Of a DNA stretch of 44,227 bases, positions 18,694 to 20,958 are shown one piece after another (within the stretch, counting starts at the first letter, position 1; the number at the start of each line of letters is the position of its first letter). The notes under the pieces were generated by a model. That model was not told where the DNA came from. It made no database searches and was given only the letters and a program-made list of their open reading frames with translations. Location of the stretch: the IMG/VR virus record IMGVR_UViG_3300045131_001670, positions 1 through 44,227 of that record; one strand, 5' to 3'. A program made the translations under genes and the position numbers. This DNA comes from a virus (taxonomy: Duplodnaviria; Caudoviricetes).

Positions 18694-18722
18694 TTGACGC
18701 CCCTTGCTACGAGGTATATTAT
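18694..18722 (+). promoter_or_regulatory. Strong early promoter of the plus-strand cassette
   Basis: TTGACG-17 nt-TATTAT preceded by A/T tracts (UP-element-like). Confidence 0.8.
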
Positions 18723-18775
18723 AGGTATCAGGATAGCGATTTGAGAGGGAATCCTCAGTAATATGTTTCTATTTG

Positions 18776-18843
18776 CCTTTAGTAGCGGTCTGGACGAACT
18801 CCAGAAGATACCATTTAAACGTGGTGATAAGACGGTCTGAGGC
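18776..18843 (+). ncRNA. Unclassified three-way-junction RNA candidate
   Basis: Closing GCCTT(T)AG/CTGAGGC; hairpins TCTGGA-CGAAC-TCCAGA and TACCA-TTTAAACG-TGGTG; purine-rich linkers. Confidence 0.45.
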
Positions 18844-18845
18844 TA

Positions 18846-18909
18846 TATGATGTCATGGCGGTATTTTCCGCTATCTGACGATGGTCTAATTTAAGACCGA
18901 AACATTATA
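18846..18909 (+). ncRNA. Hammerhead ribozyme, type III
   Basis: Stem III TATGATGT/ACATTATA, GTC cleavage triplet (cut after 18854), stem I ATGGCGG/CCGCTAT, core CTGACGA(T), stem II GGTCT/AGACC, GAAA. Confidence 0.9.
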
Positions 18910-18922
18910 GAGGGGTAATATC

Positions 18923-19144
18923 ATGGGTTTCTACAAACGTTATAACACACGGCGATCGCTTTATGTTACTAAGGCTCGCTTTGACAGCACCTGTGCTGAA
19001 ACCGGACAGCTTATTAAGACTGGAGAAGAGATGGTTTACGACCCTAATACACGGCAGTGTTACCATTCTAATAGTATTCAAGCTAAAGAGACCAGACAGC
19101 AAGCATGGAATGAAGCTAACTGCATGGCTGATAGCAATTGGTAG
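18923..19144 (+). CDS. Small early phage protein
   Basis: AGAGGGG RBS; KARFDSTCAETGQLIKTGEEMVY motif; first ORF after the promoter and hammerhead. Confidence 0.75.
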   Translation: MGFYKRYNTRRSLYVTKARFDSTCAETGQLIKTGEEMVYDPNTRQCYHSNSIQAKETRQQAWNEANCMADSNW

Positions 19145-19208
19145 AATACTCGCACTGACGAGCGGTATGCGATAATCAAAATATAATCGCAAAATAAGGG
19201 GTGTTATC

Positions 19209-19385
19209 ATGAAAATCTATGTTGTGTGGGAAATTCCACGTGGTGGAGATTATGAAGAATTCCGTGGTGAGTTTTCCAACCGAATTAATGCAATTAACTT
19301 TGCGTCTAACCTTTCGGGTAAAATCCGGATAGCGGTAATTGATATGGCTATACCGCCGCGCTTTGACCGATCATTATTGCGTTAA
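19209..19385 (+). CDS. Small early phage protein (58 aa, not in the ORF track)
   Basis: AAGGGGTG RBS; MKIYVVWEIPRGGDYEEFRGEFSNRINAINFASNLSGKIRIAVIDMAIPPRFDRSLLR. Confidence 0.7.
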   Translation: MKIYVVWEIPRGGDYEEFRGEFSNRINAINFASNLSGKIRIAVIDMAIPPRFDRSLLR

Positions 19386-19417
19386 CCATTTTCTCCCCGA
19401 TCGTTCTTCGGTCGGGG

Positions 19418-19481
19418 TCTTCTAACTCTACTACCGCTTAATGGTAGCTGTCGGCAGTCAGCATTGAAGAGGACCGGAAGG
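19418..19481 (+). ncRNA. Twister ribozyme, P1 type
   Basis: P1 TCTTC/GAAGG; T^AA (cut at 19423/19424); P2 CTCT/AGAG; P3 TACC/GGTA; P4 GCTG/CAGC; L4 TCGGCAGT; pseudoknot T1 CGG/CCG after the conserved GA; pseudoknot T2 AC/GT. Confidence 0.88.
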
Positions 19482-19491
19482 GGGAAATCCA

Positions 19492-19815
19492 ATGATCGTG
19501 TTAACTTACACACGTCCTGACACTGAGGGCGACATCTTACAGTGGCGGTTCCCGACAGTGGGGCATCTGCTTGATTCCCATGATTGGGACAACGATGGCT
19601 ATCTGGATGCGATTTATGACGGCATCCGGCAGAACGATGCTGATATCGATGTCATCATCTGCGAGATTGAAGACGAGGGCAATCAGTATGACTGGACCTT
19701 GTATATGACTAACGCCATTAGTGAGCAGGACTTCTGCGATTACTGGAATCTTTACACTGAAGAATGGTGCAGTCCTGAGGGCATCGCTCCGGTTTGGCGA
19801 GCGAGTGTCGAATAG
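19492..19815 (+). CDS. Small highly acidic early protein
   Basis: AAGGGGG RBS; 107 aa with 24 D/E, 4 R and no K. Confidence 0.75.
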   Translation: MIVLTYTRPDTEGDILQWRFPTVGHLLDSHDWDNDGYLDAIYDGIRQNDADIDVIICEIEDEGNQYDWTLYMTNAISEQDFCDYWNLYTEEWCSPEGIAPVWRASVE

Positions 19816-19817
19816 TA

Positions 19818-19882
19818 TCTGCTCTGACGATGGGTCGTTGACTCCGACCCGAAACCGCAAGGATGCGGTCAGCAGAAGTCAA
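19818..19882 (+). ncRNA. Hammerhead ribozyme, type I with loop-II pseudoknot
   Basis: Stem I TCTGCT/AGCAGA, core CTGACGA(T), stem II GGGTCG/CGACCC, GAAA, stem III ACCGCA/TGCGGT, GTC (cut after 19870). Loop II TTGACT is complementary to AGTCAA at 19877-19882. Confidence 0.93.
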
Positions 19883-19911
19883 TTACTGCAAAATTAAGGG
19901 GGGACCATATT

Positions 19912-20178
19912 ATGGTAATAACTTGTCATGACCACGGCGATAGCGTAGCTGACCGCTTTAGCGTGGTATTCTGGAGCGAATTTGATGAAGAGTCAGGTTT
20001 ATATCCAGTTACGTTTTTTTCAGCCGATTGTGATAAACCGAATGGTGTTTGCCAGCATGATGCTATTCCTGAAAAGTGGATAGCTAATCTGGGTGTGCAG
20101 ATAGAATTCGAAGAGATGCCGAAAGCTTGCCAGAAGGTTGCTAACAGGGAAATGGACGAATTAATGGGGAGGCTTTAA
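19912..20178 (+). CDS. Small acidic early phage protein
   Basis: Poly-G RBS; DHGDSVADRFSVVF...PNGVCQH...LGVQIEFEEMP resembles an uncharacterised phage family. Confidence 0.75.
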   Translation: MVITCHDHGDSVADRFSVVFWSEFDEESGLYPVTFFSADCDKPNGVCQHDAIPEKWIANLGVQIEFEEMPKACQKVANREMDELMGRL

Positions 20179-20179
20179 G

Positions 20180-20452
20180 ATGGCTGTTCATTCATATGAT
20201 TGCTTCTTGCATCCGTTTATTTCGGGGCAAGTCAACCGATTGTTGATTAATGGTAATACTGCCGCAAGGCGTGACGCTCAGGGTCAAGTGGCGGTATACG
20301 TTAATGTGTGGGGTCGCCGCCATCAGGGCATTATGCTGCGCTTGTGCAAGGCTCTGGAACATGGCGGTGTCGACTATGCGTTGCTGTCCGGAAAAATAGA
20401 CAGCGGTGTCGTTCTGGACGAAAATAACGAGATTATTGGGGAGGTTATATAA
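20180..20452 (+). CDS. Hypothetical early protein
   Basis: GGGGAGG RBS; abuts both neighbours. Confidence 0.7.
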   Translation: MAVHSYDCFLHPFISGQVNRLLINGNTAARRDAQGQVAVYVNVWGRRHQGIMLRLCKALEHGGVDYALLSGKIDSGVVLDENNEIIGEVI

Positions 20453-20745
20453 TGCCAATGATTGCCGTTGTGCTTCCGCCGTCAGTCGTCCTGCATGGCT
20501 CTGGTTGCGATAAATTCCGCTATGTCACCGGATTAACTACTGACATCGTCAATCACGCTGTAGCGATCGGTGGCGAGGGCGTAATATTACTCCAACATTC
20601 GCATACTCGCTATCGTGGTGAGCGGTACAAGATGATAATACCTTACCGCAATCTCAAGCGGTGGCAGTTCCGGTCCGTGCCTAATCGTAAATTCGATGAT
20701 GGGCAAATATTTATAATTGAGGAGATGTCGAATGAAGAAGTTTAA
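20452..20745 (+). CDS. Hypothetical early protein
   Basis: GGGGAGG RBS; TAATG coupling with the previous gene. Confidence 0.7.
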   Translation: MPMIAVVLPPSVVLHGSGCDKFRYVTGLTTDIVNHAVAIGGEGVILLQHSHTRYRGERYKMIIPYRNLKRWQFRSVPNRKFDDGQIFIIEEMSNEEV

Positions 20746-20905
20746 AGAGAACCTGATAATGGTGGTTCTGATCCTACTTGTTTGGGCGGTAACCTTCCCT
20801 GTAGCGTTTGTCGAGTATACTAAGACAGGTTACTGCTTTTCCCTGCTAATACTCCCATGTTTGGGGGTGTGGGGCATTGAAGAGATCTTAAAACGTATCC
20901 GATAA
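20732..20905 (+). CDS. Small two-TM membrane protein
   Basis: Start MKKFKENL after a GAGGAG RBS; two hydrophobic segments; last gene before the terminator. Confidence 0.65.
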   Translation: MKKFKENLIMVVLILLVWAVTFPVAFVEYTKTGYCFSLLILPCLGVWGIEEILKRIR

Positions 20906-20913
20906 TGAATCCG

Positions 20914-20958
20914 GCGGTCCAGTTGGGGATAAAACCCTGATTGGACCGCTTTTTTTTT
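20914..20958 (+). terminator. Intrinsic terminator closing the early cassette
   Basis: 15-bp stem GCGGTCCAGTTGGGG/CCCTGATTGGACCGC followed by T9. Confidence 0.9.

Follow-up and report, generated by a model that had tools for sequence, protein, structure and literature searches.

The closest described counterparts of the locus considered here are clusters of hammerhead ribozymes that flank phage genes of varying identity; cleavage has been shown for three of these clusters, and processing of their transcripts into gene-sized mRNAs has been proposed (PMC3088659). The role of self-cleaving ribozymes in phages is still a matter of suggestion, as the processing of polycistronic phage transcripts was put forward without proof and as an idea in need of it (PMC6765202). 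Twister ribozymes cut at 1–10 per minute and do not need their P1 stem to do so (PMC5408937), and they have been engineered to mask a Shine-Dalgarno (SD) sequence, where the format that uses P1 gave ∼5-fold activation and low output compared with ∼100-fold for the P3 format, the low output being ascribed to structure that remains beside the SD (PMC5052635). Translation that depends on cleavage has been reported in the 5′ UTR of a fungal virus, which is a different system (PMC13725137). Searches of the open full-text literature brought up no natural twister that masks an SD.

The window analyzed here is the whole of a linear IMG/VR virus record of 44,227 bases (IMGVR_UViG_3300045131_001670), which is estimated to be 54% complete and carries terminase, RusA and replisome-organizer genes; lake and freshwater metagenome contigs carry DNA near-identical to it. 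The ribozyme locus is a plus-strand island of seven small genes without assigned families, situated between a sigma-70-like promoter and a terminator. At its head is the putative sigma-70-type promoter TTGACG-17-TATTAT (18694–18722, 10 of 12 consensus positions), and then come a predicted type III hammerhead (18846–18909), ORFs of 73 residues (18923–19144) and 58 residues (19209–19385) without a family, a twister-fold element (19418–19481), the 107-residue ORF 19492 (19492–19815), a predicted type I hammerhead (19818–19882), four more small ORFs with no convincing family (19912–20905) and an intrinsic terminator with a 16-pair stem and a T run (20913–20958), all on the plus strand. The leader that separates the promoter from the first hammerhead (18729–18845, plus strand) is kept, with several indels, in contigs from runs X12 and X13. 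It has three short hairpins and, possibly, an outer stem of 6 bp with TAA after it, it contains no match to any twister descriptor and its fold is no better than that of shuffled sequence (z −0.14), and a 25-codon ORF within it is frameshifted in the related phage. The spacer 5′ of ORF 19209 (19145–19205, plus strand) has a CTGACGA word, two small hairpins and no GAAA core and is possibly a decayed hammerhead; the CTGANGA words at 19155 and 19757 were considered as hammerheads and failed the hammerhead descriptor.

The first-pass annotation of this DNA had drawn every twister helix and both pseudoknots, and pair tables confirm that each of them pairs within 19418–19481. The essential stems P1 (19418–19422/19477–19481; four Watson-Crick pairs and one U-G), P2 (19426–19429/19468–19471) and P4 (19447–19450/19459–19462) are all present and the element ends in P1, as in a type-P1 twister, with the optional P3 (19432–19435/19443–19446) and no P5. 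Pseudoknot T1 joins 19452–19454 to 19474–19476 (C-G, G-C, G-C) and T2 joins 19430–19431 to 19457–19458 (A-U, C-G), and all five pseudoknot pairs (25-49, 26-48 and 27-47 in T1, 13-31 and 14-30 in T2, as defined in PMC10249389) are Watson-Crick. The predicted U-A cut site with the catalytic A7 (U6/A7) falls at 19423/19424 and the catalytic G45 at 19472, where they had originally been placed, and A46 is at 19473. A strict descriptor, composed after the sequence was known and with position 28 unconstrained, matched once in the window and in none of 1000 dinucleotide-shuffled windows, while a loose one averaged 0.25 matches over 40 shuffled windows and had an additional, A/T-rich match on the minus strand of the window. 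We regard the twister fold as real, on the combined grounds of pair tables, descriptor, published mutants and the compensatory P3 pairs described below, and self-cleavage as a prediction.

Comparison with the Osa-1-4 sequence (PMC5113685 supplement) bears out the proposal that T1 and T2 are swapped relative to the Oryza sativa twister and brings the departures in the core to four, namely pairs 13-31, 26-48 and 27-47 and position 28, the last of which (C at 19455) had been missed and changes the A28-A46 contact of T1. Neither twister family of Rfam (RF03160, RF03154) matched this element at the gathering score, and we thus file it as a twister-fold variant and not as an Rfam member. The miss probably stems from the two rewritten pseudoknots together with C28, since the RF03160 model scores the pseudoknot letters as unpaired conserved sequence and these are altered here. 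In the Osa-1-4 mutant matrix (PMC5113685 supplement), read by column counting, the relative activity of G13A/C31U is 0.89 (single change, 0.17), that of C26G/G48C is 0.74 (0.09), that of C27G/G47C is 0.86 (0.13), that of A28C is 1.00 and that of A10U/U43A is 0.79, each value referring to one pair at a time, in another background and at a 2-hour end point that, as its authors warn, masks losses of rate. In 105 distinct natural twisters from one phage scaffold (L192–L330), pair 26-48 is A-U in 66, C-G in 25 and G-C in 6, and the T1 pairing covaries freely at this position; pair 27-47 is C-G in 97.

The same comparisons allow a less favorable reading, that the element is a slow or dead remnant which serves as a structured spacer, its activity cut by A28C, the rewritten pseudoknots and a competing helix. 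The lack of an Rfam match extends to E ≤ 10, position 28 is C in only 1 of the 105 natural twisters (A in the other 104), G-C at 27-47 occurs in none of them, and the mutant data cover the changes one by one. Yet each change is tolerated singly in Osa-1-4, three coordinated pseudoknot swaps would be unlikely in a decaying element, and in a related phage the core is unchanged and P3 covaries. We therefore give decay a very slight chance and consider it plausible, as far as the sequence can tell, that 19418–19481 is a divergent but viable twister.

That relative is a single related form present in two runs (X12 and X13), whose contigs connect 18916 with 19389, 19486 with 19819 and 19904 with 20189 and have other sequence in between. 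At these joints the flanked genes vary and the ribozymes stay, as in the described phage clusters. Within 19389–19486 only P3 and the P0 loop differ, P3 having two compensatory pairs (19433/19445 and 19434/19444) plus loop changes, and no difference falls in the catalytic core, P1 or the SD. A different reading frame begins 5 nt 3′ of the SD in the relative, which is to say that the SD and its overlap with P1 accompany the ribozyme to a different gene. Run X20 provided two 151-nt contigs, neither of them over the cut site, and in run X16 the ribozyme lies outside the coverage. A pattern made of loop 4 plus T1 had 48 viral matches, of which 0 had the flanking stems of this twister, and searches for close relatives gave 0 matches in genome contigs and no meaningful match among GenBank phages.

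The gene downstream of the twister encodes a very acidic protein of 107 residues (24 D+E, 4 K+R, 6 W), for which Pfam, PHROG and the Atlas gave no usable match; that it is an acidic DNA mimic is a guess. Two apparent protein-based relatives (L001, L050) were chance matches, and one true homologue, P0002, which comes without upstream DNA, backs the start codon by having the same first seven residues. P0002 is identical to the ORF 19492 protein from residue 41 on and differs before it, and this suggests recombination inside the gene. A contig from run X12 appears to encode the P0002-type form, and in it 19803 connects directly with 20175, which leaves out the type I hammerhead and ORF 19912.

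What sets this twister apart is its relation to the ribosome-binding site (RBS). The SD of ORF 19492, AAGGGGG (19478–19484), is 7 nt 5′ of the ATG at 19492 and has a predicted duplex energy of −10.8 kcal/mol with a 9-nt anti-SD, and the 3′ strand of P1 (GAAGG), which the first-pass annotation had rightly seen to overlap this site, covers its first four of seven bases, such that this part of the SD is base-paired to the fragment that lies 5′ of the cut, the arrangement of an ON switch. In nested folding predictions, which place the pseudoknots outside the model, and with the core held folded, the cost of opening the SD is 6.4–6.5 kcal/mol before the cut and 2.3–5.0 kcal/mol after it, depending on the downstream length folded; the short window gives a fall from ∼6.5 to 2.3 kcal/mol, a release of 4.2, and longer windows give smaller gains. 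For the wider RBS the predicted cost is ∼13 kcal/mol before and 3–11 kcal/mol after the cut, again by the window folded. All of the blocking strands lie on the 5′ fragment, as originally claimed, and the cleaved pieces are held by ∼4.7 kcal/mol (a difference of ensemble energies), so that the 5′ piece should depart after the cut. Cutting is thus likely, on these models, to ease translation of ORF 19492. T1-type structure can persist in the cleaved product of a twister (PMC8782182), and T1 ends two bases 5′ of the SD here.

The further claim that an outer helix and a hairpin bury the rest of the RBS held up only in part, in that both can be drawn. The 9-bp hairpin (19395–19417), which differs in related phages by loop insertions only, is the optional P0 stem of the family, a stem reported in 21% of annotated twisters (PMC6154101), and in our survey 58 of 86 phage twister clusters had a stable hairpin immediately upstream of P1. 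The outer helix pairs a U-rich strand (19388–19394), directly 3′ of the stop codon of the 58-residue ORF (19383–19385), with 19482–19488 and is weak: it has 7 bp, two of them U-G, contributes 1.5 kcal/mol and has a probability of 0.17 in a longer context. When the 40 nt upstream of the hairpin were shuffled 300 times, 184 of the shuffled versions hid the SD at least as well, and 85 did so for the wider RBS; the outer helix is at chance level, and we rejected it as a selected anti-SD. Six of its seven pairs are still possible in the related phage (read by hand), and a second X12 contig, which stops 5′ of the 3′ strand, has C to T at 19393 with a wobble pair kept; as transitions within a pyrimidine/purine tract, the two changes are a weak sign of retention. 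Separately, the tail of the upstream ORF (19363–19390) can pair with 19491–19505, the start and first codons of ORF 19492, and in the relative ∼7 pairs are possible by hand between the stop region and codons 2–4 of its different genes. Either chance or translational coupling of the ordinary kind could account for such pairing, and it was left uncounted here because it lies in the parts of the genes that are swapped in the relative.

How unusual is the overlap of SD and P1 was assessed among other phage twisters. The first viral scans, whose patterns demanded GAGGG and were thus biased to SD-like sequence, gave 101 twisters in 42 clusters, 32 of which had an SD and an ORF call (the other 10 were left out); the overlap is at least 2 nt in 7 of the 32 and at least 4 nt in 2, and the predicted release reaches at least 4 kcal/mol in 1. 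A second scan, free of this bias and limited to one scaffold and to 5 of the collection's 64 parts, gave 95 twisters in 86 clusters, and in the 40 that had an SD and an ATG (46 were left out) the corresponding numbers are 3, 2 and 0. The release of 4.2 kcal/mol predicted here exceeds that of 31 of the 32 and all 40 of these clusters. Three of the seven overlaps in the first set (L083, L113, L098) rest on a nearby TTG or GTG start that may be wrong, although L098 still overlaps, by eye, when its ATG is used. Start codons lie at continuously varying distances from P1 (7 to 40 nt in the first scan, 3 to 53 nt in the second), the overlaps are found where this distance is short, and the Rfam consensus for the 3′ strand of P1 is itself purine-rich. 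Hence the SD-in-P1 layout is in the upper tail and is not unique, and it appears to be tight packing at its short extreme. Seven IMG/VR loci (L055, L073, L098, L180, L263, L264 and L295) share a P1 3′ strand that overlaps a predicted SD before an ORF; unlike the twister here they have A28 and the usual form of T2, and L180 alone among them has a larger predicted release (6.8 kcal/mol). All five loci checked by cmscan matched RF03160, one of them above the gathering score, and the matching loci include L055, L073, L098 and L180. An estimated ∼1700 stored viral stretches match the twister pattern of the survey. Several matches between L051 and L077 (e.g., L056, L057 and L059) resemble circularly permuted twisters, with a separate SD and ATG directly after them.

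The two hammerheads provide an internal comparison. All three ribozyme motifs lie in the one plus-strand unit (18694–20958) with its single promoter-like and single terminator-like site. The hammerhead descriptor matched twice in the window, once each for the type III (predicted cut after 18854; fold z −3.55) and type I (predicted cut after 19870) forms, compared with 2 matches in 1000 shuffles. Rfam matched neither of them (18846–18909, 19818–19882) at E ≤ 10, and in each of them a single additional U sits between the core and stem II. The SD of ORF 18923 begins just 3′ of stem III of the type III hammerhead, while the type I hammerhead, also supported by its fold, has a 6-bp pseudoknot between loop II and the 3′ tail (read by hand) and a compensatory change in stem III (19856/19867) in the related phage. 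The predicted costs of opening the RBS before and after the cut are 6.4 and 6.0 for the one and 7.4 and 6.7 for the other, compared with 13.5 and 9.4 for the twister, and these values indicate that the two hammerheads do not hide or free their ribosome sites.

These results bear directly on whether the overlap is itself the product of selection, such that ORF 19492 would be silent on the uncut transcript and made from the processed mRNA after a short fixed delay. Such a role would fit an SD with four of its seven bases in P1 and the large modeled fall in RBS opening on cleavage, a release in the top tail of the surveyed twisters, the joint relocation of ribozyme and SD in the related phage, and the ∼5-fold activation of the engineered P1 format (PMC5052635). 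It fits less well with an outer helix that stays within its shuffles (184/300 for the SD and 85/300 for the wider RBS), with an SD outside P1 (overlap of less than 2 nt) in most surveyed phage twisters (25/32 and 37/40), with neighboring hammerheads that do not gate, or with a delay of under about a minute. On balance we judge selection for such a role to be unlikely, although it deserves more weight than either of the other alternatives that we considered. The stronger claim of the first-pass annotation, of a natural ON switch that acts as a timer or gate, was not sustained. No sensing domain is found in the fold, which lacks P5, has in P3 a 4–5 bp hairpin that varies in relatives and has an ordinary P0; cutting at 1–10 per minute would limit any delay to about a minute or less; and the hammerheads of the same unit do not gate. 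An input from a protein or a ribosome that acts on the twister is possible.

One such input was considered specifically. The U-rich strand might hold the RNA in an inactive fold that hides the SD, until a ribosome that ends translation of ORF 19209 melts this strand, the twister cuts and ORF 19492 is released. The inactive helix pairs 19416–19423 with 19468–19475 and so covers G45 and T1. Nested folding favors this alternative helix (P about 0.9), which also counts against constitutive processing: once 19482–19488 is present and the U-rich strand is free its probability is 0.91–0.99, but with the bases up to 19394 blocked it falls to 0.08–0.19 and that of P2 rises from 0.01–0.06 to 0.5–0.9. 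A ribosome at the stop codon of ORF 19209 would presumably block just these bases, if we assume a typical footprint length. The relative also has a stop codon 2 nt 5′ of the ribozyme block (read by hand, from a loose end) together with the six possible outer pairs. The folding model, however, leaves out both pseudoknots, and by the same measure misfolding is at least as strong in 29 of 122 natural twister clusters and in 83 of 200 shuffles of the upstream sequence, the misfolding gap, at 5.1 kcal/mol, sits at the survey median (5.0), and the core can fold before the 3′ strand of the outer helix exists (P2 ∼0.5 at transcript end 19482). Control of this kind accordingly seems to us improbable. 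Were the upstream ribosome to control cleavage, this would represent a novel form of translational coupling, in which translating one gene triggers an RNA self-cleavage that switches on the next.

We propose instead that the twister probably takes part in constitutive mRNA processing, with a modest gain in translation, and is not a timer or a gate. According to this proposal it would cut constitutively at 19423/19424 and, with the two predicted hammerheads, chop one operon transcript into gene-sized mRNAs, the predicted cuts yielding a 569-nt piece with two ORFs (18855–19423) and a 447-nt single-gene mRNA for ORF 19492 (19424–19870). With the ribozyme packed against the start codon, the P1 strand would double as the first four bases of the SD, and once the RNA is cut, the 5′ piece, attached through about 5 base pairs, would fall off and the ribosome site would open more easily. 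With no sensing input and a cut expected within about a minute, the result would be a fixed cut-then-translate layout and not a regulated switch. A catalytically dead mutant would likely be translated a few-fold worse, and such a drop is probably to be expected whether the element is a switch or constitutive. Constitutive processing does have to accommodate a release in the top tail and an SD overlap that moves with the ribozyme, as a selected gate would.

An operon with three predicted ribozymes, one of which overlaps an SD and two of which do not, would let cutting and the effects on stability and translation be compared directly within one reporter, at a time when a role of phage ribozymes in mRNA processing has been suggested and not proved. 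Moreover, twisters with rewritten pseudoknots escape Rfam, and counts of phage ribozymes are thus likely to be low.

When set beside the known systems, the element shares with type-P1 twisters (RF03160; Osa-1-4, PMC5408937, PMC5113685) the stems P1, P2 and P4, the optional P0 and P3, both pseudoknots and the U6/A7 cut site, A8, C14-G30, G23, U24, A29, G45 and A46, and it differs from them in having G-C rather than C-G at 26-48 and 27-47 of T1, A-U at 13-31 of T2 and C at position 28. With the hammerhead clusters of phages and prophages (PMC3088659) the locus has in common several ribozymes per transcript, each of them immediately upstream of a small gene, and genes between the ribozymes that differ among relatives; in contrast to those clusters it is mixed, with a type III hammerhead, a twister and a type I hammerhead, and one of its ribozymes overlaps an SD, while the sections of PMC3088659 on those clusters do not discuss SD masking. 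As in the engineered SD-masking twister platform (PMC5052635), the SD is in the 3′ strand of P1 and would be freed as the 5′ fragment leaves, and residual ribozyme structure would stay beside it, but the arrangement here is natural, places four of the seven SD bases in P1 and has no aptamer or other input.
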